A stretch of 64,000 nucleotides of DNA from Flavobacteriaceae bacterium (GCA_046329205.1 JAXLVF010000006.1:91077-155076), one strand, 5' to 3'; positions 43,862 to 58,342 are shown, numbered from the stretch's first letter. Notes: a model not told the origin generated them from the sequence alone. A program made the numbers and translations.

Positions 43862-45403
43862 ATGGAAAAAAAGCACGACATAATGTTAATACTTGAGGGT
43901 ACATATCCATTCAATTCGGGTGGAGTTTCTACTTGGGCTCATATGCTATGTAATGACGTTAAGAATGCTAACTTTTCTTTGTACTCAATCAATGCATCTT
44001 TTGAACAAAAACCTAAATTTGAATTGAGTGACAATGTAAAAGATGTTATCCAAGTGCCATTATGGTCACCACTTGAACCTCAAGAGATGATTAATTATGG
44101 TAAAAAATATCATGATATTGTTTTTGTAAAAGAGAAAAATGACGAAGCTCAGATTAAAGAAAAGTTTATTCCTTTATTCAGAAGATTAGTTACTAGTATA
44201 TATTCTGACACTAGAAAAGTAGAAGACTTTGATGACATCATGTTTAAATTGTGGAAATATTTCCAAAAACATGATTACAAGAAAACGATGTTGAACATTG
44301 AAGTATGGAATACATTTTGTTCTTTAGTTAAAGATATTATTTCTAAAGATAATGAAGATGCATCTTTATACGATTTAACATTAGGTATGCGTTGGATTTA
44401 TCGTTTTCTAATACCAATTTCAATTGATGTACCGAAAGTTGATGCATGTCATTTGACAATTTCAGGATTTCCTGTTATACCAGCATTGATATTGAAATAT
44501 AAATATGATACTCCAATAATCGCAACAGAGCACGGTGTTTTCATCAGAGAAAGATTATTGGCTATCAACTCTTCTGAATATTCATTCTTCTTGAAAAAAC
44601 TTTTAATAAGATTTTCAGAAAGTATAACGGAGTTAGTTTATTATAAAGCAGACTCAATATTATCTGTAAACAAGTTTAATATCAAGTGGGAAGAAATGTA
44701 TGGTGCTGATAGCGATAAAATAGGTATCATATACAATGGAATAGATCACAAGTTATTTGCTCCAAAAGAAAAACCAGAACATTTAAAAGATGTGCCAACT
44801 GTAGTTGCTGCCGCAAGAGTTTTTGATTTGAAAGATATCATTACAATGATTAAGTCTTGTGATGTTGTTAGACAAACAATACCAAATGTTCAATACATGG
44901 TTTATGGAGATAACAATGCTGTTCCAGAATATACAAAGGAGTGTATGGATTTGATTAGCGAGCTTAAACTTGAAAATAACTTTAAGTTTGCAGGTTACCA
45001 TAGCAAACCGCACGAACTTTTCTGTGAAGGCGATGTGTCAATTTTAACTTCAATCTCTGAAGGATTTCCATATACCGTGTTAGAATCAATGAGTTGTGGA
45101 ATACCAGTAGTAGCTACTGATGTTGGAGGTGTTACTGAAGCACTTGATGAAAATTGTGGTTTCATTTGCAAACCAAAAGATCACGTAGAAATAGGAAATA
45201 GAGTTATAGAACTTCTTCAAAATCAAGAATTAAGAGAGAAAATGGGTATCAATGCTCGAAGAAAAGTCTTGAGAAACTTCACCATCGATAAGTTCATAGA
45301 GAAGTATGAGGAAGCTTATGACAGAATCTTAACTAAAGACAGAAAAGAAGTTCGTGAGCCAATCTTTATCCAAATGGGTCGCGAAGCTATGGAAGCATCA
45401 TAA
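43862..45403 (+). CDS. PelF-like GT4 glycosyltransferase (DUF3492-type N-terminal domain + GT1/GT4 C-terminal domain)
   Basis: 513 aa. The N-terminus MLILEGTYPFNSGGVSTWAHML matches the EGTYPY..GGVS.W signature of PelF/DUF3492 proteins. The C-terminal half has the retaining-GT4 block ILTSISEGFPYTVLESMSCGIPVVATDVGG (E-x7-E). Confidence 0.8.
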   Translation: MEKKHDIMLILEGTYPFNSGGVSTWAHMLCNDVKNANFSLYSINASFEQKPKFELSDNVKDVIQVPLWSPLEPQEMINYGKKYHDIVFVKEKNDEAQIKEKFIPLFRRLVTSIYSDTRKVEDFDDIMFKLWKYFQKHDYKKTMLNIEVWNTFCSLVKDIISKDNEDASLYDLTLGMRWIYRFLIPISIDVPKVDACHLTISGFPVIPALILKYKYDTPIIATEHGVFIRERLLAINSSEYSFFLKKLLIRFSESITELVYYKADSILSVNKFNIKWEEMYGADSDKIGIIYNGIDHKLFAPKEKPEHLKDVPTVVAAARVFDLKDIITMIKSCDVVRQTIPNVQYMVYGDNNAVPEYTKECMDLISELKLENNFKFAGYHSKPHELFCEGDVSILTSISEGFPYTVLESMSCGIPVVATDVGGVTEALDENCGFICKPKDHVEIGNRVIELLQNQELREKMGINARRKVLRNFTIDKFIEKYEEAYDRILTKDRKEVREPIFIQMGREAMEAS

Positions 45404-45448: not shown

Positions 45449-47065
45449 ATGAAAAATCATGATGAAAATATCAATAGGCTTACTATTGCCATAAAGGAAA
45501 AAATAGGCAAGCCTGTAAGTGTCAGAGTTGTAGTCGCAACTATTGAGTCACTTGGCGTTAGAGATATTGATGTCCCAGAAGATTATGGTTTATCATCCAT
45601 TAGAATTTTGGCGGATTTAATCTATCGTGATTTAACTATTTCACCTGAAAACATAGGATTAAAGAATAAAAAAGAAATTGAAAGTATTGAAAAAGATTTT
45701 TCAACTGTTCAGGTTTCAGATTATTTAATGGTGAAAGCCAAAATTTTCTTTGAATATTATCCCAAAGGAATTTTTCACCTATTTCCGGTTTTACTTCAGA
45801 TACTTGCCATTGTTGTTTTTGGCTATTCACTTTGGACTTATGTTGGGTTTAATCATACACAATCAACGGCAGTAGTTCTCGGGGTAATTGTAGGTTTAGT
45901 AACTTCTGGAGGTTTTGTTCAAGTTATTGGTAGACAAGCTTCATTCTTTTGGAATCATCAGGATTTAAAACAGACCAAAAGCATAGTAGATTATTTCATA
46001 AAACTTGGTGTTAAATCTATTTTCTTTGTACTTACCTCAATTTTTGTTATCAATTCTTTTTTCTATTTATATCCAATTCAATTCTTGTTTGTGGTTTTTG
46101 TGTATGCTTTTTTGATAGGATTGTTATTGCTAATCATTGCTCCTGTACACGTAATAAAGCAACGATGGGTTGTTTCTGTATCCATTTTTGTGGCAACTGC
46201 AGTAGCTATTTTACTTAAAAATTATACTATTCTGCACATTTATGTCACACATTGGATTGGAATTATTGTTGCAATTTTGATATCAAGGATTTACATAAAT
46301 TTTTATTTCAAAAGAAATATTAAAAAGAGAAACCATGATTCAAAAATTGTTTTGAAAACTCCAGTAATGCTTTATCACACCTATAGATATTTTTTCTATG
46401 GAACATTGCTTTACATATTTATATTTATTGATAGAATAATTGCATGGTCTTCTTCAAATTTTGATCAACACATTCCTTTTTTGGTTTATTTTGAAAAAAA
46501 CTATGAGCTTGGAATGGACTTGGCAATTTTGGTTTTCCTACTTCTAGCAGGCGTAATGGAATATGCCATTGCTGCCTTCTCAAAGTTTATCGAACTTGGG
46601 CAGAAACAAACTTCATATAAAAACAAAGAAAAATACGGAAAAAAATTGTTGCGAATGTATTGGCAAAGTATATCAATGCTAGTTGTTACAAGTATTATGA
46701 TTTTTATTTTGATGTATTATATCGTAACAGCTTCCTGGGGTTATAGAGGTCAATTTAACGAAGTATTAGATGACGTAACTATATTTGTTGGCTTTGCTGG
46801 AGGAGTTGGATATTTTTTCTTAGCTTGGGGAATGTTGAACACATTATATTTATTTACGCTAAGTCAGCCATCAATTCCCTTGAAAGCTTTGATTGTTGCT
46901 TGCATTGTTAATCTATTATTTGGTTTTTTCTTAAGTAGATTTATCTCCTATGAATATAGTGTGATAGGAATGATATTAGGAGCAATTACTTTTTGTGTAT
47001 TAACATTAAAACATTGCATCAAATTCTTTAAAAATTTAGACTATTACTATTATGCGGCAAATTAA
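45449..47065 (+). CDS. 12-TM membrane protein, PelG-like candidate exporter, with ~105-aa N-terminal soluble extension
   Basis: 538 aa. About 12 hydrophobic helices from roughly residue 108 onwards. Sits immediately after the PelF-like gene, as in pel loci. The assignment rests on synteny and topology only. Confidence 0.5.
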   Translation: MKNHDENINRLTIAIKEKIGKPVSVRVVVATIESLGVRDIDVPEDYGLSSIRILADLIYRDLTISPENIGLKNKKEIESIEKDFSTVQVSDYLMVKAKIFFEYYPKGIFHLFPVLLQILAIVVFGYSLWTYVGFNHTQSTAVVLGVIVGLVTSGGFVQVIGRQASFFWNHQDLKQTKSIVDYFIKLGVKSIFFVLTSIFVINSFFYLYPIQFLFVVFVYAFLIGLLLLIIAPVHVIKQRWVVSVSIFVATAVAILLKNYTILHIYVTHWIGIIVAILISRIYINFYFKRNIKKRNHDSKIVLKTPVMLYHTYRYFFYGTLLYIFIFIDRIIAWSSSNFDQHIPFLVYFEKNYELGMDLAILVFLLLAGVMEYAIAAFSKFIELGQKQTSYKNKEKYGKKLLRMYWQSISMLVVTSIMIFILMYYIVTASWGYRGQFNEVLDDVTIFVGFAGGVGYFFLAWGMLNTLYLFTLSQPSIPLKALIVACIVNLLFGFFLSRFISYEYSVIGMILGAITFCVLTLKHCIKFFKNLDYYYYAAN

Positions 47066-47861
47066 AATGATATTATTGTTGTTATCATCTGTAATAATGA
47101 GCAATTTTTCTGTTAAGTCTCATGAAAAGGAAGATGTATTGTTTTGTTATGGAAAATTAAAAGCACAGAGTATAGTTGGTTATAAGTATGTTGTGCTGGA
47201 AGCTAAGCATTACACAAAATCTGAAATAGCTACTATCAAAAAAAACAATGTACACGTTCTAGCATATATAAGTTTAGGAGAAATTAATGCGCATTCAGAA
47301 CATTATAAAATGCTAAAAGACAATACATTAGGTAAAAATGAAAACTGGAATAGCCACTATCTTGACTTGAGTTCAAACAAAACAGTCGTTGCCTTGATGT
47401 TGATAATCAAAGATTTGATGAATGATGGGTATGATGGATTGTTTTTAGATAACATAGATAATTTCAGCACCTTTGGTAAACAAAAAGAACATAAAGAATA
47501 TCTTATAAAGTTTTTATCCAAACTAAGAAAGGAATATCCAAAACTGTTTTTCCTTCAAAATGCTGGATTAGATATCGTTGATGATACGAATAAGTTTGTT
47601 GATGCTGTTGCAATTGAATCTGTTGCAACAAATTATACTTTTAATGATAAAAAATATAAACTTAGAGACGAAGAGGACTATAAAAAATACATAACTAAAT
47701 TAAAAAACATTAATAATAAATATAGTTTACCGATTATATTGATTGAATATGCAGATACCAAAAAACTGCATGATGCTATTGTAAAAAGAATTTCATCAAC
47801 AGGCTTTTCATTTTTTATTGGAAAAATTGATTTGCAAACTTTACCAAAGTACACCAAATAA
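47052..47861 (+). CDS. Secreted GH114 / PelA-hydrolase-domain-like endo-alpha-1,4-(N-acetyl)galactosaminidase candidate
   Basis: 269 aa with a signal peptide. VLAYISLGEI and DGYDGLFLDNIDNF match the conserved Y.S.GE and DG.FLD..D blocks of Glyco_hydro_114 TIM barrels. Confidence 0.7.
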   Translation: MRQIKMILLLLSSVIMSNFSVKSHEKEDVLFCYGKLKAQSIVGYKYVVLEAKHYTKSEIATIKKNNVHVLAYISLGEINAHSEHYKMLKDNTLGKNENWNSHYLDLSSNKTVVALMLIIKDLMNDGYDGLFLDNIDNFSTFGKQKEHKEYLIKFLSKLRKEYPKLFFLQNAGLDIVDDTNKFVDAVAIESVATNYTFNDKKYKLRDEEDYKKYITKLKNINNKYSLPIILIEYADTKKLHDAIVKRISSTGFSFFIGKIDLQTLPKYTK

Positions 47862-49831
47862 TGATTGTATCTGCTTCCATAATATTAGGTATTGTTAGAC
47901 TTTGTCTGATAGTTTTGTTATTGTTCTATTTTAACCAACGTATTTTTGGTGCAAAAGATAAAGAGCAAGGACTATTAGATTTTATAGTTCAACATTTGGT
48001 AAAGTATGGAAGCTATATTGTTATAATTGTATTTATTGAAGTCCAACTGAGAATATATGATTTTTTCAACACATTATTCTTTTTGTTATTAGTAGCTTGT
48101 TTTGAGATTTTTGGTCTAAAAAGACTAATATCACCAGCAAAACTTGTTTTAGCAACTAGAAAAAAATCCTACACAATTCTAAGGGATTTGGAAGAAAAAA
48201 AACTAGGATTTAGCTATTTTTTACCAAAATTTTCAAAAGAAAAGAAAATTAACCTCATTTGGGAAATTGTGATTATTACATTGCTGATACTTATTACAAT
48301 TTCTGGTAGATTGTTTTTCTTGAGCCATGATTCATATTCACTTTCAAATATTTGGAATAGTGATATTACTACTGTTATCGATTTTGACTCACAACATTGG
48401 TTTGAAAACTCTATTTCGCCAATAGGTGAACTAGTAATTATAAACTTCTATGGTAAAATAACTGGGTTAACATCAGAAAACGCCTTACAATCAATGGGAT
48501 TGATAGAAGCAATTCTTATTGTTTTAATTATTTATTGGGCAATAAGCAAAGTATCGAAATCAAAGTATATAGCTCCAATCATTGGTTCATTGTGTTTTGC
48601 TCTTTGTTTTGTAATTCTTCCTGTGAACATTGCTTATTTGCAACAACATCGTTCTACATTTTTAGCGTTAGCAATTGCTATTCCATTAATGGTTTACTAT
48701 ATGGATCCTAAATTGCTCAATTTCACAAGAAAAAGATATTTTTTCTTTTATCTTTTTTCATTTGTTTCAATTGGGTTAATAGACTTATTTGTTCAAATAG
48801 CAATTGTTTTACCATTTATGATTATTGGGCTTTTTGTTTCAAAAATTAAATATAAAGTTCATAATTTACTGTTGCTACTTTCATATATTGTATCAACAAT
48901 TATATTATTCTTAATATACAACACGGCATGCATAAACTTTGGTTACGATTTTATGCTTTTTCTACATTCAAGTTTAGTTTCTATAAGTACATATACTTAT
49001 CTGCCATACTTGTATATGCCTTATGAAAGCCTTATTTACTACTATCAAATCGTATCTTTTGTAGGGTTATTTTTGTCGATAATACTTATATTTATTAGAA
49101 AAGAGAATATTAATGGAGCTATTTCATTTTTACTTTTTTTAAACTTTATAATTTTTGTCTCTACAATACAGAATCCATGGATTGACCAAGATTTAATTAG
49201 ACAGACATTGGCTATTTTCCTTTCAATTTCCGTTGGAGTAGTGGTTGGTTTGTTCTTCAAGCCATTTGAGTTCTTGACAAACAAGATAAAGATTATTATG
49301 CCAATGGTTTGTGTTTTATTAGCCGTTGGAATGACATATACTGCTTATTATTATCAAAAGGATAGCTTTAAAAACATGAAGCGTCCTGATGATACTCCTA
49401 GAGAAGTTCTAAATGCTTATGATTTAATTACTAATGAATATTTTCCTTATTCATATGCTGTTGTCAATGACTATTCTGCTCAAGCTTTGAGTAAAAATAA
49501 GCACTTCTTTGTCAATTATGAAGATTTTTTGAATGACTACTTAAAACGAGATGAAGTATTTTTTAAACACATTAAAGATAAAAAATTTTTAAAAAACAAC
49601 CCAGAATATGTGTTGCCAAATTGTGTTTTAGTTTTTGTTTATACCCGACAAAATAAGTTTTCTAACGAATTAACATCAAATAAAAAATATACTAACGAAC
49701 TTATAGATTTGTTGAAAAAATTGAGACACAGAGGAAGAAGAGTAAGGGTTTTTCACGAAGACAAAGTGTTCAAAATATATGAAATTGTAAATATACCAGG
49801 CGAAAGTAGATTAACAGATTTAATTTTTTAA
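47861..49831 (+). CDS. Orphan ~13-TM membrane protein with ~170-aa C-terminal soluble domain (function unknown)
   Basis: 656 aa. TAATG overlap with the upstream gene, and its stop lies 2 nt before the next ATG. No motif recognised. Confidence 0.6.
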   Translation: MIVSASIILGIVRLCLIVLLLFYFNQRIFGAKDKEQGLLDFIVQHLVKYGSYIVIIVFIEVQLRIYDFFNTLFFLLLVACFEIFGLKRLISPAKLVLATRKKSYTILRDLEEKKLGFSYFLPKFSKEKKINLIWEIVIITLLILITISGRLFFLSHDSYSLSNIWNSDITTVIDFDSQHWFENSISPIGELVIINFYGKITGLTSENALQSMGLIEAILIVLIIYWAISKVSKSKYIAPIIGSLCFALCFVILPVNIAYLQQHRSTFLALAIAIPLMVYYMDPKLLNFTRKRYFFFYLFSFVSIGLIDLFVQIAIVLPFMIIGLFVSKIKYKVHNLLLLLSYIVSTIILFLIYNTACINFGYDFMLFLHSSLVSISTYTYLPYLYMPYESLIYYYQIVSFVGLFLSIILIFIRKENINGAISFLLFLNFIIFVSTIQNPWIDQDLIRQTLAIFLSISVGVVVGLFFKPFEFLTNKIKIIMPMVCVLLAVGMTYTAYYYQKDSFKNMKRPDDTPREVLNAYDLITNEYFPYSYAVVNDYSAQALSKNKHFFVNYEDFLNDYLKRDEVFFKHIKDKKFLKNNPEYVLPNCVLVFVYTRQNKFSNELTSNKKYTNELIDLLKKLRHRGRRVRVFHEDKVFKIYEIVNIPGESRLTDLIF

Positions 49832-49833
49832 TC

Positions 49834-52800
49834 ATGAAGAAAGGACTACTCAACCATATAAAATATGTAATTTCTGCAATAGTAATTCTTGCATTAATTA
49901 CTAGTTGTGGACAAATAGAAAAATTATCATCAATAGAAGATATTAATGCGCTCAATAATTCTGATACCATATCTCTTCGAGAATATGATAAAACTAAATT
50001 GGCATTACCACCAGTTATAGAATATTTGGTTGATAACACAACAAGAGAAAGCTTAAAACTAGGCGGACATTTGAAAAAATTATCAGATTATTCTAAACTT
50101 CCTTTGCAAGTCACAAATGTAGCTGACTGGAATGCAAATCCTCAAATTCCAGAGTCCGTTAGAACATTGTGTATTTATGATACAAAAAAGATAAATTCTA
50201 GCAATATTGAAAAGATTGTTGAGTTTGTAGCAAAAGGCGGAAACCTTTTCCTTCCTTCAAATAGTGAAGATGTTCGTTTTGGTTATTTGATAGGATTAAA
50301 ACCTAATCCTAACTATGAAACAGATGTTGTATCAAAAGGCTTCAATTTTACTACTAATTTCATCACTGGAATGAACGGTAAGTATTGTCGTGAATTATTA
50401 GTTTTATATGGTTTTGAAAGAAAATGTTTTAAAGATGATATAAAAATATTGGCAAATTCAGTAAACAATAAAAATTATCCTTCTATAATCGAAAATAATG
50501 TAGGTAAAGGAAGTGTAATCTTTGTTAATTACACAGGCTTCATGGAAAAAATGGATAGAGGATTACTCTTTGCAGGTCTATTGCATGGTTTAGAAGGTAT
50601 TCCTTATCCAGTTGTTAATTCTAGTACAATATTTTTGGATGATTTTCCAGCACCATTATATGATATAAAAAGCGAGCCAATAGCTTCTGAAATGAACCTC
50701 AATGTTCAAGATTTTGTGAAGAAAGCTTGGTGGCCAGATATGGTGAAAATTGCCCAGAAGTTTGACATAAGCTATGCCGCAATGACCACTTTTGACTACT
50801 CTGAAAATACTGAACCACCATTTTTATTCAAACAATGGGAAAATAAAAAAGTAAAGGAAGGCAATAAGAATGTTTTTATTACTGATTGGTTTATGAATGA
50901 AGTAAAAAAACATAATCATGAACTTGCCTTTCACGGATATAATCACGTTTCTCTGCTTGAGCACGACTGGAAAAACAAAGACTTCATGGTTACAGCTCTC
51001 AAGACTGCTGAGAAAAAATGGTTGGTGAACAATTATGGCAATTTACCTGTTACGTATGTTCCGCCATCAAATTTTATTGATAGAACAGGAGTGAAGCAAC
51101 TTACCAAAGGTATGCCATCATTAAAGTTTATGTGTAGTCTCTATCTTGGTGAAACTGCCAATGGAGGTAACCGCGAATTTGATTATGATATGTATAATCC
51201 TAAATTATTTGATTATCCAAGGATTTCTAGTGGGTTTTATTTTGATGATAATTATGAATATGCTATTCAATCCATGTATATATTCACAGGTATTTGGACA
51301 CATTTTGTTCATCCCGATGATGTGTATCAAATTGCAACGCAAGAAAATAATAGTCAAGGAGATTTTGATTTAAGAAATCCCAAAGGATTAGGATGGAGAA
51401 AGACTAATGGTACTAATGAAAGTTTGTCAAATGATTTTGTTAAGTATCTTACCTCTCAACGAAAAAACTTCCCGCTGATGCGTTTCTTAAACGCTCGTGA
51501 AGGTGCTCTTATCACAAACGATTGGCGTGCATCTGTATTTACTCACAAACAAATAAATGGCGACTATATTGTAGAAAAAATTAATCAAGATTTATCGCCT
51601 TTCAAAGAACAATATTGGTTTGTATATGGAACCCAGCAAAATGCATCACAAATTGAAAATGAGTTAAAAGAACAAAATGCTAAGTTTTCTAAAACTAATT
51701 TTCAAAATGGATACCTATACAATGTATATACAAAAGTTCCAAGATTGAGCATAAAAAATTTCAAAGAGAAAAATGAAGAACAAATTGCTGCTATCCAAAA
51801 CGAAGTAATCGTAGCCAAAAAAGAGTACAATTTGTATTTAAAAAAATTGTATCAAAAAGAAGAAGAGGAAGAGAAAGAGATCGATTTTGACGAGCTTCAT
51901 AGAAAAGAAATGATACAGTTGAAAGAGAAAATGCTTTCTCAAGAAAAAATTGATCCATCTGTTTGGAACCAGTATGCTAAATATATGTCTTGGGAAGATA
52001 AAGGTGACGAAGTATGGAAAATGCTTGAAAACCATTGCTTGAAATTTCCTCTAGCAGAAAATATTCTTTATTCAAAAGAATTGAGTAAGATAATTGACTA
52101 TCCAAACGATTTAGTAAAAGAAAAATGGATGAGTGCACAAATTATGGTAACACCAAATGATAAGGATTTACTAAATAGTTATGTGGCAAACTTCTATTCT
52201 GCTGAAAATCAAGAAAAGATTAAAACGGCATTGCTAGCTTTATTAAAGGTAGATACTTCTAAAGAAAGCTATTTGAAATTTTTGCAATATTTATTAGAAT
52301 TTGAACCCAATAATGCAATTGTAGAACTTGAAAAAATTGAGCCATCAGATGAATATTCAAGCCTTGCAACAGCTATTACATGGTTATATGCAGATAATGA
52401 AATGTATGACAAAGCTTTGCAATGGTCAAAATTCACAAATGAAATAGATGATTACACAAGAATGACATGGTTAGTTGAACAAAAAGATTTCAAAAACCTT
52501 GAAATACTCTATAAAAAAGTCATTGCAGAAAATCCTCAAAATTACAAAGCAAAAGCTCTCATGAGTAACGTACTACATGATAATGGAAGATTCAAAGAAT
52601 CATGGATTATTGCCAATTCATTGCCAGATGTAGATGAAAAAAGACCACTTCGTGAAATGCTTAACAAAGATGTTGTTTTTGAAGAGCATGATGTAAAAGA
52701 ATATCTTGTGAACAATGAAAAAGAGTTATTTTACCCTGATGTTCTTGAGAAAATTGTTAAAGTAGAACGAAAACAATATGGGTCATTTTTGAATTTAGAT

Positions 52801-53727
52801 TCAGAGTTACAAACAAACAGAGAAACACCATCTGCTTTTAAAAATGTATTCTCATATAACTTTTTTGATAAAAAACTAAATCTTCATAGCATTGGATTTA
52901 CTTACGGACAGATGTTTGATATAGAAGACTTTAAAGATATCGAAGATAATGTTTTGCATAACCTCTATGGTTTGCAATACCAATTTAATTTAGCTAATCG
53001 TCCAGAGAAAATGAATTATTGGGCAAGGAGTAGAGTAGAGTATAGCGATAGAGGAAAAGTGTTTTTCCACTATGGTATGGGAGCAAACATTTCTACCGAA
53101 GCATCTTTTAACTCGGCTGAGTTCAAAATATATCCAGCAGAAACTGGTCCAGCACACAGCAAAAGTATCTACAGATTCCAATTGAATTTTTATAGAGATA
53201 TGTATTTCTTTGGGTTTTTAAATGCTAGTATATCATTAGAAGGAAATTTTTATAACAAAAGCAAAACAGAAAACACTAATTACACAACAGAAGATTCTTT
53301 CGATGGTTCATTAACTACTAAAATCTCATTGAATAAACCTGACGAGAAAAAATATAAAATTATACCGTTTCTAGAAGCATCTAAATCTCAAGGTTCTTTG
53401 GGTAAATCATTTGTTCCACTATCTACAGGATATCCTTATTGGATGCTAGATGAAAGGTTTTTCTATGGTGGAGGAATAGGTTTTAAACTAGGAAAATCTA
53501 CTGATAATTTCAGATTTAATGTTGAAGGGACTTATTTCATTGATGATTACAGTGATAATTTTGAAAGAATTTTAAGTGGTGTTGAGTATCAAATATTTGA
53601 TTTTACTTCTATAAAAGCAAATCTAGAGATGTATATTCAATCCAAGTATTATTCGAATGTGATACAATTTGGAATAAAACATAACTTGAAAAAGAAATCA
53701 GTAAAAACAAAAAAAGGAATTGATTAA
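49834..53727 (+). CDS. 1297-aa lipoprotein: DUF2194/CE4-like polysaccharide deacetylase module + Glu-rich coil + TPR-like helical repeats + C-terminal outer-membrane beta-barrel (PelA-deacetylase/PelB-like fusion)
   Basis: Lipobox ALITSC (Cys25). FLDD (D269-D270), HGYNH (H367/H371) and THFVHPDD (H490/H493) have CE4-like order and spacing. EEEEEKE coil at about residues 675-700. Helical repeats at about 700-960. Alternating-hydrophobic strand pattern at about 965-1285. Confidence 0.65.
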   Translation: MKKGLLNHIKYVISAIVILALITSCGQIEKLSSIEDINALNNSDTISLREYDKTKLALPPVIEYLVDNTTRESLKLGGHLKKLSDYSKLPLQVTNVADWNANPQIPESVRTLCIYDTKKINSSNIEKIVEFVAKGGNLFLPSNSEDVRFGYLIGLKPNPNYETDVVSKGFNFTTNFITGMNGKYCRELLVLYGFERKCFKDDIKILANSVNNKNYPSIIENNVGKGSVIFVNYTGFMEKMDRGLLFAGLLHGLEGIPYPVVNSSTIFLDDFPAPLYDIKSEPIASEMNLNVQDFVKKAWWPDMVKIAQKFDISYAAMTTFDYSENTEPPFLFKQWENKKVKEGNKNVFITDWFMNEVKKHNHELAFHGYNHVSLLEHDWKNKDFMVTALKTAEKKWLVNNYGNLPVTYVPPSNFIDRTGVKQLTKGMPSLKFMCSLYLGETANGGNREFDYDMYNPKLFDYPRISSGFYFDDNYEYAIQSMYIFTGIWTHFVHPDDVYQIATQENNSQGDFDLRNPKGLGWRKTNGTNESLSNDFVKYLTSQRKNFPLMRFLNAREGALITNDWRASVFTHKQINGDYIVEKINQDLSPFKEQYWFVYGTQQNASQIENELKEQNAKFSKTNFQNGYLYNVYTKVPRLSIKNFKEKNEEQIAAIQNEVIVAKKEYNLYLKKLYQKEEEEEKEIDFDELHRKEMIQLKEKMLSQEKIDPSVWNQYAKYMSWEDKGDEVWKMLENHCLKFPLAENILYSKELSKIIDYPNDLVKEKWMSAQIMVTPNDKDLLNSYVANFYSAENQEKIKTALLALLKVDTSKESYLKFLQYLLEFEPNNAIVELEKIEPSDEYSSLATAITWLYADNEMYDKALQWSKFTNEIDDYTRMTWLVEQKDFKNLEILYKKVIAENPQNYKAKALMSNVLHDNGRFKESWIIANSLPDVDEKRPLREMLNKDVVFEEHDVKEYLVNNEKELFYPDVLEKIVKVERKQYGSFLNLDSELQTNRETPSAFKNVFSYNFFDKKLNLHSIGFTYGQMFDIEDFKDIEDNVLHNLYGLQYQFNLANRPEKMNYWARSRVEYSDRGKVFFHYGMGANISTEASFNSAEFKIYPAETGPAHSKSIYRFQLNFYRDMYFFGFLNASISLEGNFYNKSKTENTNYTTEDSFDGSLTTKISLNKPDEKKYKIIPFLEASKSQGSLGKSFVPLSTGYPYWMLDERFFYGGGIGFKLGKSTDNFRFNVEGTYFIDDYSDNFERILSGVEYQIFDFTSIKANLEMYIQSKYYSNVIQFGIKHNLKKKSVKTKKGID

Positions 53728-53745
53728 GTCAATTCCTTTTTTTTA
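53713..53745 (+). terminator. Rho-independent terminator of the Pel-like operon
   Basis: AGGAATTGA-TTAAG-TCAATTCCT stem followed by TTTTTTTT. The stop codon lies in the loop. Confidence 0.65.
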
Positions 53746-53764: not shown

Positions 53765-55387
53765 TTAATGTTTTACTATAAATCTTTTTGTTGTTGAAGA
53801 TTGTCCGTTAGATAATCTAATAAAATATACGCCAACAGCTAGACTTTCAGTATTTAGTATCATTCTGTTATTATCTATATTAGATTTAATACCAAATGAT
53901 TGCCCTAATGTATTATAAATTTCAGCTTTGTAATCTGCTATATTTTCCATTTCTACAATCAATTCTCCATTTGCAGGTACAGGATAGATAACTGGTGTCA
54001 AAATGTTATTGTCTATTACAGCAAGTGCAGATGTAACATTTAGTGTAAAATTAAGATTATTATACCCAGTAGATGTTTCCCACATGTTAGTATTTGCTAG
54101 TCTAATTGAATAGTCTGGTTTAGAAGCCAATGAAGAAGATGCGTCTGGTAAATACAAGAACAATTTATAACTACCTGGAGCAATTGTGTTTGGTAGTGTT
54201 AAATTCTCTGAAACAATCATTTCATTGTTAGAGTTTAACCACAATCTTGGATCTGCATTAAGTTGAACACTAAATTCTTGGTCATTTGCTACATTTCTCA
54301 ATACTAAATAGGCTTTTCTTTGGTTGAAAGGTGAAGCAAATCCAACATTTTGTATTCTAAAAGAAATTGGTAAAGTTCCACCAGAATTTGTTGAATTTGG
54401 AAATGTTGCCGAATTCATTTGCAATCTATAACCTAATTTCTTTTTTAATTCTTCTAAACAGCTATCAGTACTGAATTCAGATATTACTTGTGGATAATAG
54501 TCAATATTCATGTATGACCAATGAAATTTTGCCATTTCAAATAAAGCTGTTGCACAATTTGAACGATCATCATTGAAGGCACATGTTTCTCCACCCATTG
54601 GAGTGAATTTAGTTTCTTGTTCTAGATATGGATATTCTGAGGCAACGCTAGTGTATGTTCCCATGTCAGTATTATCAGCAAGGAAACAATCATTGTGATG
54701 ACCAACTCTAGCTAAGTTTGTTCCATTAAATCCTTGAGTATTGTTTAAAGCTGTAGTAGTCAAAAATGTTTTTTGTTTCAATTTTGGAGTTCTAAGCTGT
54801 ATCATTCTGTTGCTAGGAATTGCTAATAATAGTGCATCAATAACTTCTTTTCTATTTGCATAATCAGCAGCAGTTGGGTTCATACCAAAATGATCTGTGT
54901 AGTACCATTCTCCCCATGCACCAATAAATCCAGCTTGAACCACAGTAATAACATCAGCATTTGCTGTTAAAAGCGGTTTTAATTGTTGCAAATGAGCAAT
55001 AATTTGTTCTTTTGAAGCATCGCGTTGTGTAGCACCAGCATCATCTGAGTATGCAAAACGTACAATACATTTAATTCCTGCATTTCTAATTTTATCAAAA
55101 TCAGCTTGCATGTTGCTCAAATAGCTTGCAGAAATTGGAGAATTGATAAAATCTTCTAAATAGAAAATTCTTAGTATCAATGAAATTTTTTCATTGAGGA
55201 TGTAGTTTCTTAATGAAGTTTGATTTAATGCAGAATAACTTGCAGAATGAGTTTCTTTATGATGATAAAAACCTCTTTCTGGATTTGAAAAGTTTTCTGT
55301 AGATGGCGTGTAAGATACACTTGTTGTTTGTGCTTCTAATTTTACAACCAGTAAAACTAAAATTAATAATGCATAAATCTTTCTCAT
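53765..55387 (-). CDS. T9SS-secreted DUF4874/DUF4832 (glycoside-hydrolase-like TIM barrel) protein
   Basis: 540 aa with a signal peptide. NPERGFYHH and AGFIGAWGEWYYT blocks. The C-terminal ~80 aa (IYPVPANGELIV...GVYFIRL...KRFIVKH) is a type-A Por/T9SS sorting domain. Confidence 0.75.
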   Translation of the reverse strand: MRKIYALLILVLLVVKLEAQTTSVSYTPSTENFSNPERGFYHHKETHSASYSALNQTSLRNYILNEKISLILRIFYLEDFINSPISASYLSNMQADFDKIRNAGIKCIVRFAYSDDAGATQRDASKEQIIAHLQQLKPLLTANADVITVVQAGFIGAWGEWYYTDHFGMNPTAADYANRKEVIDALLLAIPSNRMIQLRTPKLKQKTFLTTTALNNTQGFNGTNLARVGHHNDCFLADNTDMGTYTSVASEYPYLEQETKFTPMGGETCAFNDDRSNCATALFEMAKFHWSYMNIDYYPQVISEFSTDSCLEELKKKLGYRLQMNSATFPNSTNSGGTLPISFRIQNVGFASPFNQRKAYLVLRNVANDQEFSVQLNADPRLWLNSNNEMIVSENLTLPNTIAPGSYKLFLYLPDASSSLASKPDYSIRLANTNMWETSTGYNNLNFTLNVTSALAVIDNNILTPVIYPVPANGELIVEMENIADYKAEIYNTLGQSFGIKSNIDNNRMILNTESLAVGVYFIRLSNGQSSTTKRFIVKH

Positions 55388-55810: not shown

Positions 55811-55835
55811 CATTAACTAAAAATATCAATTGGAT

Positions 55836-57746
55836 ATGAATTCAATAGCGCAGAATATCGCGAATTTTTTAAAAGATTATGAGCCTTTCAATTATTTAAC
55901 CCATGAAGAATTGATATTGGTTTCATCAAGTATTAAGGTCATCAATCTTGAAAAAAATAAAGCTTTATTTAAAATTGATGATAAACTTCATGATAGTTTT
56001 TATGTTGTTGCCTCAGGTGTTGTTCATCTGTCATTTGTTGCAGATGCTGAAGAAACTTTGCTAAACAAGTGTTATCCTGGTGATATTTTTGGATTACGAC
56101 CATTTTTTGCAAAAAATAATTACATGATGACCGCAAAAGCTCGTGAAGATTGTATTATTTACGCTGTACCAATTAATGTTTTCAAACCTTTTGTTTCTTT
56201 GAATTCATCGGTTTTAGATTTTTTACTTGAAAGTTTCGCTACAAATACTAAAAATTCATTCGACAAAGAAAACAGAAATAATATTATCACCGACTCTATT
56301 TATAACGAACACACTTCTGGTGAAATCCAATATTTTCAATCATTAAGCTATAATAAAACGCCATTAAAAATAGCTGTAAATTCTATTGCAAAGGATGTTG
56401 CTCAATTAATGACCGATAACCTATCTAATAGTGCTATTGTAATTGAGAATGGCTTACCTGTTGGCATTGTTACGGATACGGATTTTAGAAGTAAAATTGC
56501 TAACGCCAGATTTCCTTTAAATTCGACAATAAATAAAATAATGTCTTCTCCAGTCATTACTGTTCCAGAAAATGTTTCTGTTGCCGAAGCACAGCTTTTA
56601 TTGCTAAAATATAATGTTAGTCATTTGTGCGTTACAGTTGATGGTACTGATAAAGCTGAAATTAAAGGTGTGATTTCTGAACATGATTTGGTTGTTGCAC
56701 AATCAAATAATCCTGGCGTTTTGATTAAAGAAACAAAACGAGCAATTACGCCAAAAGAGTTAAAACAGGTCAGAGAAAAACTCACTGAATTAATTCAAAC
56801 TTCTATTGCAAAAAACATTCCTTTACCTCATGTTTATAACATTGCTGGAGAAATTATTTTTGCAATAAATAAAAGAGCTGTAGAGCTTTCAATCTTAGAT
56901 TTAGGTTCACCTCCTGCCCGCTTTTGTTGGTTAAGTATTGGAAGTCAAGGAAGAAAAGAACAATTATTGTTAACAGACCAAGATAGTTTTTTGATTTTTG
57001 AAGATGTTGCTGAAGAAAAATACAAAGAGGTTAAGGACTATTTTCTAAAATTAGCAAAACGTACAACAGCTATCTTAGAAAAAGTTGGTTATTCATATTG
57101 CCCATATAACCACATGGCAAGTAATATGTTTTTGTGTAAATCATTGACAGACTGGATAAAACAATACAATAGTTGGATAAAAACTCCAGGCGAAAAATCA
57201 AATGAAATTAGTAGTATTTTCTTTGATTATGAAATGGTCTTTGGCGAGCAAAAACTTGAAGATACCATTACAGAAGTCATATTTAGTAATTCAAAAAATA
57301 ATTTGTTTTTTGATTATTTAGGAAATGATGCCTTGAGAAAAAGTGCTCCATTAAATTTCTTTAAAAAGTTTACTGTTGAAGAAGAAGGTGAAAATAAGGG
57401 AAAATTTGATATTAAAACAAAAGCTTTGATTCCATTGATTGATGGAGCAAGGTTATTTGCTTTGAGTTTGAAATTGAGAGGTATTAATAACACTTATTTG
57501 CGTTTTAAACAACTAGCAATTTCTGATCCTAAATATTCTGAAATATATCTTAATTGTGCTGAAGCATTTTTAACATTGTCAAAATTCAGAACTCTTGAAG
57601 GTTTGAAAAATGATAGTCCTGGGGATTTTATTAACTTAGAAGAATTATCAAAAGCTGATAAAGAAAAACTAAAAAATGCATTATCTCCTATGCGTGATTT
57701 AGAAGAACTAATTAAGGATAGATTTCAACTAACTCAATTTTCATAA
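55836..57746 (+). CDS. cNMP-binding + tandem CBS + DUF294 nucleotidyltransferase sensor protein
   Basis: The track start at 55830 is TTG, so I prefer ATG at 55836. Contains a cNMP-binding-like N-terminus, CBS pair and the nucleotidyltransferase motif LSIGSQGRKEQLLLTDQDSFLIF. Confidence 0.85.
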   Translation: MNSIAQNIANFLKDYEPFNYLTHEELILVSSSIKVINLEKNKALFKIDDKLHDSFYVVASGVVHLSFVADAEETLLNKCYPGDIFGLRPFFAKNNYMMTAKAREDCIIYAVPINVFKPFVSLNSSVLDFLLESFATNTKNSFDKENRNNIITDSIYNEHTSGEIQYFQSLSYNKTPLKIAVNSIAKDVAQLMTDNLSNSAIVIENGLPVGIVTDTDFRSKIANARFPLNSTINKIMSSPVITVPENVSVAEAQLLLLKYNVSHLCVTVDGTDKAEIKGVISEHDLVVAQSNNPGVLIKETKRAITPKELKQVREKLTELIQTSIAKNIPLPHVYNIAGEIIFAINKRAVELSILDLGSPPARFCWLSIGSQGRKEQLLLTDQDSFLIFEDVAEEKYKEVKDYFLKLAKRTTAILEKVGYSYCPYNHMASNMFLCKSLTDWIKQYNSWIKTPGEKSNEISSIFFDYEMVFGEQKLEDTITEVIFSNSKNNLFFDYLGNDALRKSAPLNFFKKFTVEEEGENKGKFDIKTKALIPLIDGARLFALSLKLRGINNTYLRFKQLAISDPKYSEIYLNCAEAFLTLSKFRTLEGLKNDSPGDFINLEELSKADKEKLKNALSPMRDLEELIKDRFQLTQFS

Positions 57747-58342
57747 TGTTTGACTGGATAAAAAATATAAACAAAGAATATCCCGAATTTTGGAAAGAAT
57801 ATTTATCAAAATTTGAGAAAAAATCCAACAGGTATGTTATTTTATCAACAGAAACAACTGGACTTAACCCCAAAAAGGATGTTATCCTTTCTTTTGGAGC
57901 AATAGCGGTTATCAATGACCAAATTGTTGTTCAAGATACTTTGGAACTTGTCATTCTTCAATATAAGTATTTACATGATAATGGAATGACAAACGAGTTT
58001 TTAGTTGAAACTAAACTCCCAAAATTTGCTGAACCAAATGCTCTTGAGGAATTGGTTAAATACATTGGAAACTCCACGCTTGTTGGACATAGAATTCATT
58101 TTGATATAGAAATGATTAATGAAGCTTTAGAAAAATTGAACTGTGGAAGAATTAAAAATGAGGCATTAGATATTGAGATTATGCATCAAAAATTGTATGA
58201 TATAACAAGTAAATCTTTTTCGTTAGATGAATTAGTTAAATCTTATAAAATTCCACAATCTGAGAGAAATTCAGCTATTGACGATGCTTATCTTATTGCA
58301 TTATTGTTTTTAAAACTGAAATCTAAACTTGGTTTAAAATAA
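57746..58342 (+). CDS. DnaQ/DEDDh-like 3'-5' exonuclease-fold protein with non-canonical active-site residues
   Basis: 198 aa. TAATG overlap with the DUF294 gene. Exo I reads VILSTETTG (Ser where Asp is expected), Exo II is GHRIHFDIEMI, and Exo III reads RNSAIDDA (Asn where His is expected). Confidence 0.75.
   Translation: MFDWIKNINKEYPEFWKEYLSKFEKKSNRYVILSTETTGLNPKKDVILSFGAIAVINDQIVVQDTLELVILQYKYLHDNGMTNEFLVETKLPKFAEPNALEELVKYIGNSTLVGHRIHFDIEMINEALEKLNCGRIKNEALDIEIMHQKLYDITSKSFSLDELVKSYKIPQSERNSAIDDAYLIALLFLKLKSKLGLK

Follow-up and report, generated by a model that had tools for sequence, protein, structure and literature searches.

Introduction

In the Pel exopolysaccharide system of Pseudomonas, PelC, PelD and PelE are essential, and PelD acts as the receptor for cyclic di-GMP (c-di-GMP). 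PelB forms a barrel of 16 strands, in which a short stabilising helix separates strands 7 and 8 and the lumen is strongly anionic (PMC12141448). The coupling of PelA deacetylation to export through PelB–PelC, and of both processes to the inner-membrane synthase, has been described as unclear (PMC13254593, PMC12141448). PelA_DA of Bacillus cereus is a metal-dependent de-N-acetylase of alpha-1,4-linked N-acetylgalactosamine (GalNAc) oligomers, the founding member of the CAZy families CE26 and CBM114, and required for Pel-dependent biofilm; its activity needs D262/D263, an HxxxH motif, R458 and H488 (PMC13254593, published 2026). The Gram-positive PelA_DA starts with a transmembrane helix (PMC7890745, PMC13254593). 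Fusion of a polysaccharide-processing enzyme to an exporter has one reported precedent, BcsZ–BcsC of Zymomonas (PMC7112194). Here, we describe a gene from a stretch of 64,000 nucleotides of a Flavobacteriaceae bacterium (GCA_046329205.1, JAXLVF010000006.1:91077-155076), hereafter the window, in which all positions are counted from the first letter. The gene, the fifth of a pel-type cassette, encodes a deacetylase of the PelA_DA type followed in the same chain by a predicted tetratricopeptide repeat (TPR)-like arm and a predicted outer-membrane barrel.

The deacetylase module of the fusion protein

The open reading frame (ORF) and every motif listed for it in an earlier, sequence-only reading of the window were recovered at the positions assigned to them: LITSC ending at C25, FLDD at residues 267-270, HGYNH at 367-371, HFVHPDD at 490-496, and a run of five glutamates (EEEEE) at residues 676-680 (nt 51859-51873), which lies within the interval nt 51850-51930 given for a Glu-rich segment. 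The coordinates of all features are collected in Table 1.

Domain parsing with hidden Markov models, which that reading had proposed as a check, places Pfam DUF2194 (PF09960) on amino acids (aa) 65-603 with an E-value of 7.5e-67 and 226.4 bits against a cut-off of 30.4, covering profile positions 42-563 of 582. The sole solved structure with sequence similarity to the protein is 9ZAU, the B. cereus PelA_DA. A phmmer search with the single sequence aligns 9ZAU over aa 131-499 (E 7.4e-39), and a profile of the full-length homologues, run against the PDB sequences, aligns its chain residues 12-475 (E 2.9e-59). The limits of the CBM114-like domain are transferred from residues 62-253 of B. cereus PelA_DA, and the roles of the individual residues are taken from the same study (PMC13254593). 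All catalytic and metal-binding residues are invariant among 121 sequences (the query and 120 homologues), except that D496 is kept in 120 and replaced by Asn in one. These alignments confirm by direct homology that the N-terminal module is of the PelA_DA deacetylase type with its catalytic residues intact, and so predict a de-N-acetylase. The earlier description of a CE4-like enzyme resembling the deacetylase of Gram-positive pel loci was right in substance; the exact assignment is CE26 with CBM114 rather than CE4 proper. Two beta-strands at aa 617-632 in the AlphaFold2 (AF2) model close the module ahead of the helical part.

The chain begins with a signal peptide that ends in the lipobox Cys25, in place of the single N-terminal transmembrane helix of the Gram-positive architecture. 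Conservation of this cysteine in 119 of the 121 sequences supports the lipoprotein signal already suspected (ALITS-C25), while lipidation itself is a prediction. The N-termini of the homologues are variable and rich in Asp and Glu, and in most of them acidic residues follow the lipobox cysteine, as in CGKLDNLDADDFDFF.

The TPR-like arm and the predicted barrel

The part of the chain beyond the enzyme was modelled by AF2 on aa 601-1297 with an alignment of 55 sequences, giving a mean predicted local distance difference test score (pLDDT) of 87.9 and a predicted TM score (pTM) of 0.63. Helices span aa 648-982 in this model. The first of them form a linker, whose pLDDT falls to 53-63 around the glutamate run and whose conservation is low in two alignments. 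A Glu-rich coiled coil had been expected here; the Glu run does lie in long helices, but the segment is a low-confidence, poorly conserved and variable linker with no defined coiled coil. It is followed by the predicted TPR-like repeats, for which Pfam returns weak matches to TPR_19 (E 0.003) and TPR_17 over aa 892-936, and for which the Foldseek matches include BcsC with its TPR domain, the TPR domain of OGT and designed CTPR proteins. The helical region thus divides into about 275 aa of repeats and a linker of 55 aa, where about 260 aa of repeats had been estimated.

A C-terminal outer-membrane barrel, whose strand count was to be obtained from AlphaFold, is predicted with 16 strands. Its size is about 300 aa plus a Lys-rich tail of 13 aa, instead of the roughly 330 aa read from the sequence. 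Strands 7 and 8 are separated by a short helix at aa 1105-1109, and strands 11 and 12 by a conserved GYPYW loop. The strand sequences show the alternation expected of a barrel: the mean difference in hydrophobicity between alternate residues over the 16 strands is 2.98, compared with 1.44 +/- 0.27 in 1000 within-strand shuffles (maximum 2.24), the strand positions coming from the AF2 model and the scoring from the sequence only.

When the model was compared by Foldseek with 350,542 PDB chains, the first two matches were BcsC structures (9B8A, E 8.6e-12; 6TZK, E 7e-9), the third was the PgaA barrel (4Y25, E 3.5e-8, TM score 0.73 on the target, root-mean-square deviation 4.3 Å) and the fourth was PelB in the PelBC complex (9H80 chain M, E 4.8e-8). 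The top four represent precisely those three TPR-porin exporters of synthase-dependent exopolysaccharides for which structures are solved, and generic porins start only at E 6e-6. The proposed TPR and porin export scaffold is confirmed at the level of predicted fold, by the 16 strands and the exporter matches, and the locus context agrees with it, whereas membership of the PelB sequence family is not shown. Because no sequence homology to PelB is detectable, "PelB-like" is used here for fold, architecture and genomic context only, the first two of which come from modelling.

The pel-type cassette

Five co-directional genes, overlapping or 2-46 nt apart, make up the cassette, and the fusion gene closes it, with its start codon 2 nt past the stop codon of the upstream gene. 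The first gene encodes PelF, which scores 177.7 bits against the NCBIfam PelF equivalog NF038011 (cut-off 100) and is about 26-32% identical to annotated PelF proteins. The second encodes a PelG-like membrane protein. The third encodes a secreted GH114-type hydrolase; among solved structures, it is closest to the hydrolase domain of Pseudomonas aeruginosa PelA (5TCB, E 7.8e-20).

The fourth gene encodes a polytopic membrane protein of 656 aa, which has no sequence match in Pfam, NCBIfam or the PDB and only 27 detectable homologues, all named "hypothetical". Its AF2 model (pLDDT 77, pTM 0.76) has GT-C glycosyltransferases as all of its top 25 Foldseek matches (ALG12, DPY19, STT3/PglB, ArnT, AftA and Emb), and its acidic residues D157, D442 and D444 are invariant. 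A component with the GT-C fold is not known from any described pel locus.

Dozens of Flavobacteriaceae species share the cassette. Of 80 related Flavobacteriaceae loci, 58 have pelF, 62 the pelG-like gene, 65 the GH114 gene, 72 the membrane protein gene and 78 the N-terminal half of the fusion, and the gene order is kept wherever the contig extends far enough. Synteny extends to the flanking housekeeping genes, so the cassette is resident and not a mobile element. Outside the Flavobacteriaceae, a metagenome-assembled genome (MAG) of Balneolales carries these five genes in an unchanged order.

Distribution of the fusion

In a search of 5.8 billion proteins, over 120 homologues are full-length (1206-1328 aa) and 44-100% identical. 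Those with a species name are almost all from Flavobacterium and are labelled only "DUF2194 domain-containing protein" or "hypothetical protein". A scan with one genome per species finds 190 encoding loci, of which the closest is that of Flavobacterium lutivivi (91% identity), so that the source of the window is a near relative of this species.

A profile of the C-terminal module alone, searched against 1.84 billion representative proteins at E<=0.001 and with no word filter, finds only 145 proteins. Full-length matches are of 1240-1370 aa, or of 1580-1820 aa with extra C-terminal domains, and the match covers approximately residues 640-1300. DUF2194 stands in front of the module in all four distant members tested. 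As for the short matches, the cluster of one (P0232) holds a fusion of 1303 aa, the source record of another (P0221) is marked "partial", and several others begin without an initiator methionine. No standalone full-length TPR-barrel relative was seen among the 145 matches. Judging from these sequences, the fusion of TPR-like arm and barrel to DUF2194 appears to be obligate.

Three distant members, P0208 (1820 aa), P0215 (1590 aa) and P0219 (1630 aa), carry 300-500 extra residues past the barrel. These form a SPOR and a CarboxypepD_reg-like domain in P0208 and a NOMO-type transthyretin-like domain in P0215, and they have no Pfam match in P0219. One protein of the fusion family (P0111) is labelled Burkholderiales, and three Flavobacterium-type cassette loci (L030, L032 and L075) are labelled as MAGs of Sphingobacterium thalpophilum, Variovorax paradoxus and Bifidobacterium breve. 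Such labels are most likely due to errors in MAG binning.

Proposed mechanism

We consider it probable that the fusion protein serves a diderm bacterium as a terminal, made of one chain, for modifying and exporting a Pel-like, alpha-1,4-GalNAc-rich exopolysaccharide, a reading in which the substrate, the periplasmic location of the enzyme, lipidation and passage through the barrel are inferred. PelF would polymerise the chain in the cytoplasm, and the PelG-like protein would move it across the inner membrane. In the periplasm, the CBM114–CE26 module (aa ~65-640) would bind the chain and partially de-N-acetylate it by a metal-dependent Asp/His mechanism. The TPR-like arm (aa ~708-982) would then pass the chain to the 16-stranded barrel (aa 985-1284), through which it would cross the outer membrane. 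The lipid anchor and the tether of about 40 aa presumably hold the enzyme against a membrane, so that the anchor would stand in for the transmembrane helix of the Gram-positive PelA_DA and for the non-covalent PelA–PelB contact of Pseudomonas. The hydrolase activity, which in Pseudomonas is part of PelA, would come from the separate GH114 protein. Lipid anchoring may make PelC unnecessary, as the earlier reading suggested; what the sequence shows is a cassette with no pelC gene.

Evidence against the proposed mechanism and alternative explanations

Several findings weigh against this mechanism. The barrel is a predicted structure. At the level of sequence, Pfam B-barrel_PelB_C (PF24604) gives no match on aa 641-1297 at E<=10, whereas the same family matches a canonical PelB encoded on an Azonexus plasmid with 191 bits. 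In hhalign, the profile of the C-terminal module reaches a probability of 1.5% with the Azonexus PelB and of 0.35% with a five-sequence PelB barrel alignment, the latter being a thin profile for which the homologue search gave only four sequences. The search of the full-length homologue profile against PDB sequences finds only 9ZAU and no PelB, BcsC or PgaA. Classical outer-membrane barrels end on an aromatic residue, and all homologues carry instead a short Lys/Arg-rich tail of the KKRxKK type past the last strand (…QFGIKHNL). Counted at strand positions only, the residues predicted to face the lumen comprise 12 Asp/Glu and 13 Lys/Arg and are not net acidic. The PelG-like protein scores 0.2 bits under the cut-off of PF16933 (28.8 against 29; E 8e-7, profile positions 34-452 of 452) and has no NCBIfam match. 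Neither the cassette nor the ORFs scanned at 24.8-64 kb of the window include a pelC, pelD or pelE gene; because these are absent from the cassette and a GT-C-like protein is present, the product may differ from canonical Pel. No experiments on any member of the fusion family were found in the papers searched.

The first alternative concerns the substrate and leaves the architecture unchanged. The architecture may be as described and the polymer not Pel but another amino-sugar polysaccharide, deacetylated by the CE26 domain and decorated or attached by the GT-C-like protein by way of a lipid-linked sugar. The GT-C-fold protein, so far foreign to pel loci, the absence of pelD and pelE from the cassette, the low identity of PelF to annotated PelF proteins and the marginal PelG match would all fit such a product. 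However, PelF lies above the NCBI cut-off for the PelF equivalog, the nearest solved relative of the hydrolase is a PelA domain that acts on alpha-1,4-GalNAc, and the nearest relative of the deacetylase acts on the same polymer, and a product other than Pel is therefore unlikely. A bolder reading, which we also regard as improbable, would have the chain tethered at both ends of the periplasm, with the lipidated N-terminus at or near the inner-membrane synthase, where it would take over the PelG-docking role of the Gram-positive transmembrane helix, and the barrel in the outer membrane. The protein would then be a continuous modifying and export conduit independent of PelC, PelD, PelE and c-di-GMP, and its GT-C-like neighbour would either attach the polymer or supply it with a sugar from a lipid carrier, so that the product would be a new polysaccharide and not Pel.

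The barrel and the arm may alternatively serve as an outer-membrane anchor or assembly platform for the deacetylase, the polymer leaving by another route or staying periplasmic or cell-associated. This would agree with the missing sequence homology of the barrel to known exporters, with the non-anionic strand residues of the lumen and with the lack of a pelC gene in the cassette, given that PelB requires PelC in Pseudomonas. However, the best structural matches are of the exporter class, above all generic porins and autotransporter barrels, the conserved cassette encodes no other outer-membrane component, and 16 strands exceed the need of a mere anchor. An anchoring role is quite unlikely on these grounds, and export through the barrel remains the preferred reading.

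A further question is the side of the outer membrane on which the enzyme lies. Many lipoproteins of Bacteroidota are surface-exposed, and the acidic residues that follow the lipobox cysteine in most homologues loosely resemble the surface-export signals of this phylum; the enzyme module could then be a surface lipoprotein that deacetylates the polymer outside the cell after export. Such an arrangement is very unlikely. The enzyme covalently precedes the arm, which in BcsC, PgaA and PelB enters the barrel from the periplasmic side, and an N-terminus at the surface would need one further crossing of the outer membrane by the chain. Both termini of ordinary even-stranded outer-membrane barrels are periplasmic, and the peptidoglycan-binding SPOR domain after the barrel in some distant homologues fits periplasmic termini and speaks against an enzyme at the surface. 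That the long ORF is an artefact, two genes fused by a sequencing or assembly error, is refuted by the more than 120 independent full-length homologues from isolates and metagenomes, by the contiguity of both halves in one frame in 78 of the 80 related loci and by the presence of the same fusion in Balneolales.

Other features of the locus

Table 1 Features of the fusion gene and its cassette (window coordinates; residue numbers refer to the fusion protein unless another protein is named)
Feature	Position (nt)	Strand	Basis or remark
pelF, GT4 with DUF3492 N-terminal domain, first cassette gene	43862..45403	+	Pfam DUF3492 + Glycos_transf_1
pelG-like polytopic membrane protein, 538 aa	45449..47065	+	Pfam PelG PF16933
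Secreted GH114-type hydrolase, 269 aa, signal peptide	47052..47861	+	Pfam GH114, E 2.8e-23
Orphan polytopic membrane protein, 656 aa, predicted GT-C fold	47861..49831	+	position where pelD/pelE would be expected
Fusion gene	49834..53727	+	ATG start, 1297 aa
Predicted lipoprotein signal peptide, aa 1-25	49834..49908	+	basic n-region, hydrophobic core, lipobox I-T-S-C25
Tether, ~40 aa (aa 26-64), acidic, variable	49909..50025	+	outside the Pfam DUF2194 match, which begins at aa 65
CBM114-like alpha/beta/alpha domain, ~aa 65-260, approximate limits	50026..50613	+	Pfam DUF2194; 9ZAU alignment
CE26 de-N-acetylase domain, ~aa 261-550	50614..51483	+	phmmer alignment to 9ZAU
D269/D270 = B. cereus D262/D263	50638-50643		base + metal ligand (MT1)
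H367/H371 = B. cereus H350/H354	50932-50946		metal ligands (MT2 HxxxH)
P410-P411 = B. cereus P405			MT3 proline
R463 = B. cereus R458			base-activating arginine
H493 = B. cereus H488	51310-51321 (with D495, D496)		acid (MT5)
D495/D496 = B. cereus D490/D491	51310-51321 (with H493)		after the acid
Beta-rich C-terminal domain of the DUF2194 module, ~aa 551-640, boundary inferred	51484..51753	+	Pfam to aa 603; AF2
Variable linker, two long helices including E676-E680	51775..51939	+	AF2 helices aa 648-678, 685-702
TPR-like helical repeat domain, 17 helices, ~8-9 hairpins, aa 708-982	51955..52779	+	AF2, pLDDT ~85-95
Predicted 16-stranded beta-barrel, aa 985-1284	52786..53685	+	DSSP on AF2 model, pLDDT mostly >90
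Lys-rich tail KKKSVKTKKGID + stop codon, after the last strand	53686..53727	+	
Inverted repeat, 15-bp stem, flanked by A7 and T7 runs	53709..53743	.	consensus scan; overlaps the fusion-gene stop codon

The inverted repeat at the end of the fusion gene is likely, as judged from its sequence, to be a bidirectional terminator between convergent genes. A scan for sigma-70 promoters returns fewer matches than shuffled sequences do, the sigma-70 consensus being uninformative for Bacteroidota. The convergent neighbour (53765-55387, minus strand) encodes a protein that combines DUF4874 and DUF4832 with a C-terminal sorting domain for type IX secretion; apart from the sorting domain, no solved relative of it was found. 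In 75 of the 80 Flavobacteriaceae loci, though not in the Balneolales one, this gene adjoins the cassette, and its product may be an enzyme that is secreted to act on the polymer of the cassette. Further downstream (55830-58342, plus strand), a gene for a cNMP-binding/CBS/DUF294 nucleotidyltransferase is followed by one for a DEDDh 3'-5' exonuclease with overlapping stop and start codons, and in most related loci the two genes remain paired downstream of the cassette. In the Balneolales MAG, the cassette is preceded (L081, 1-5453) by a second, shorter DUF3492 paralogue of 392 aa and by two genes for hybrids of sensor histidine kinase and response regulator. It is possible that these hybrid kinases are regulators that replace c-di-GMP and PelD.

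Novelty and implications

Each module of the fusion protein belongs to a known kind. What is new is the occurrence of a Gram-positive-type CE26 deacetylase in a diderm, where it has a lipoprotein signal, its covalent joining to a TPR-porin whose sequence family had gone unrecognised, and a five-gene pel-type cassette without PelC, PelD and PelE and with a GT-C-fold protein. The pel surveys and structural papers that could be searched mention no pel locus of Bacteroidota or Flavobacterium and no such fusion, which does not prove absence from the literature as a whole. One survey describes all exopolysaccharide clusters that it found in Flavobacterium as uncharacterised.

With enzyme and exporter on one chain and three otherwise essential components missing from the cassette, the locus offers a minimal five-gene system for testing how modification, export and synthesis are coupled. 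It extends the CE26/CBM114 deacetylases of the Gram-positive type to diderm bacteria and places a pel-type pathway in Flavobacteriaceae and Balneolales, two lineages that go unmentioned in the pel surveys searched. It also gives a functional reading to several hundred proteins labelled only "DUF2194 domain-containing" or "hypothetical". We regard the fusion as a well-supported natural experiment on the coupling of modification and export rather than as a new principle.

Comparison with known systems

In PelB of P. aeruginosa (9H80, 5WFT), an outer-membrane barrel of 16 strands and about 300 aa comes after a TPR domain in the periplasm, an order shared by the model of the fusion protein, which also has a short helix at the same place as PelB, between strands 7 and 8. 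Both loci hold pelF, next to pelG in Pseudomonas and to a pelG-like gene in the cassette, and a deacetylated polymer is the expected substrate of both exporters. However, the arm of the fusion is much shorter, with about 8-9 hairpins, whereas the Azonexus PelB has about 930 residues before its barrel. The Pseudomonas PelA is a CE21 enzyme bound to PelB non-covalently, whereas the deacetylase of the fusion is of the CE26 family and covalently attached. The cassette offers no counterpart of the PelC ring, and the strand residues predicted to line the lumen of the barrel carry no net negative charge.

The B. cereus PelA_DA is homologous over the CBM, esterase and beta-rich domains and shares the DD, HxxxH, PP, R and HPDD motifs. 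Its gene adjoins pelF and pelG, along with a separate gene for a PelA-hydrolase-like protein, much as the fusion gene lies with pelF, a pelG-like gene and the GH114 gene. However, it is only about 610 aa long and has an N-terminal transmembrane helix that is predicted to dock on PelG. In the fusion protein, a lipoprotein signal replaces this helix, and about 650 extra residues, comprising the linker, the TPR-like arm and the barrel, follow the enzyme.

The Zymomonas BcsZ–BcsC protein likewise joins a periplasmic polysaccharide-processing enzyme to the outer-membrane TPR-porin of its own system. The fused enzyme is a hydrolase rather than a deacetylase, and the protein belongs to a cellulose system in a different phylum.

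The PgaB and PgaA proteins of Escherichia coli, which serve poly-N-acetylglucosamine (PNAG), are separate, and PgaB combines CE4 with a GH153-like domain. The PNAG and cellulose systems handle other polymers made by the GT2 synthases PgaC and BcsA, whereas the fusion cassette uses the GT4 protein PelF, and no sequence similarity of the C-terminal module to PgaA or BcsC was detected. The PgaA barrel is nevertheless the solved barrel that superposes best on the model, while the lowest Foldseek E-values are those of BcsC, the cellulose exporter. PgaB, a lipoprotein deacetylase of the outer membrane, works together with a TPR-porin, PgaA. By analogy, the fusion protein resembles PgaB and PgaA joined into one chain, and this pair is its closest two-protein analogue.

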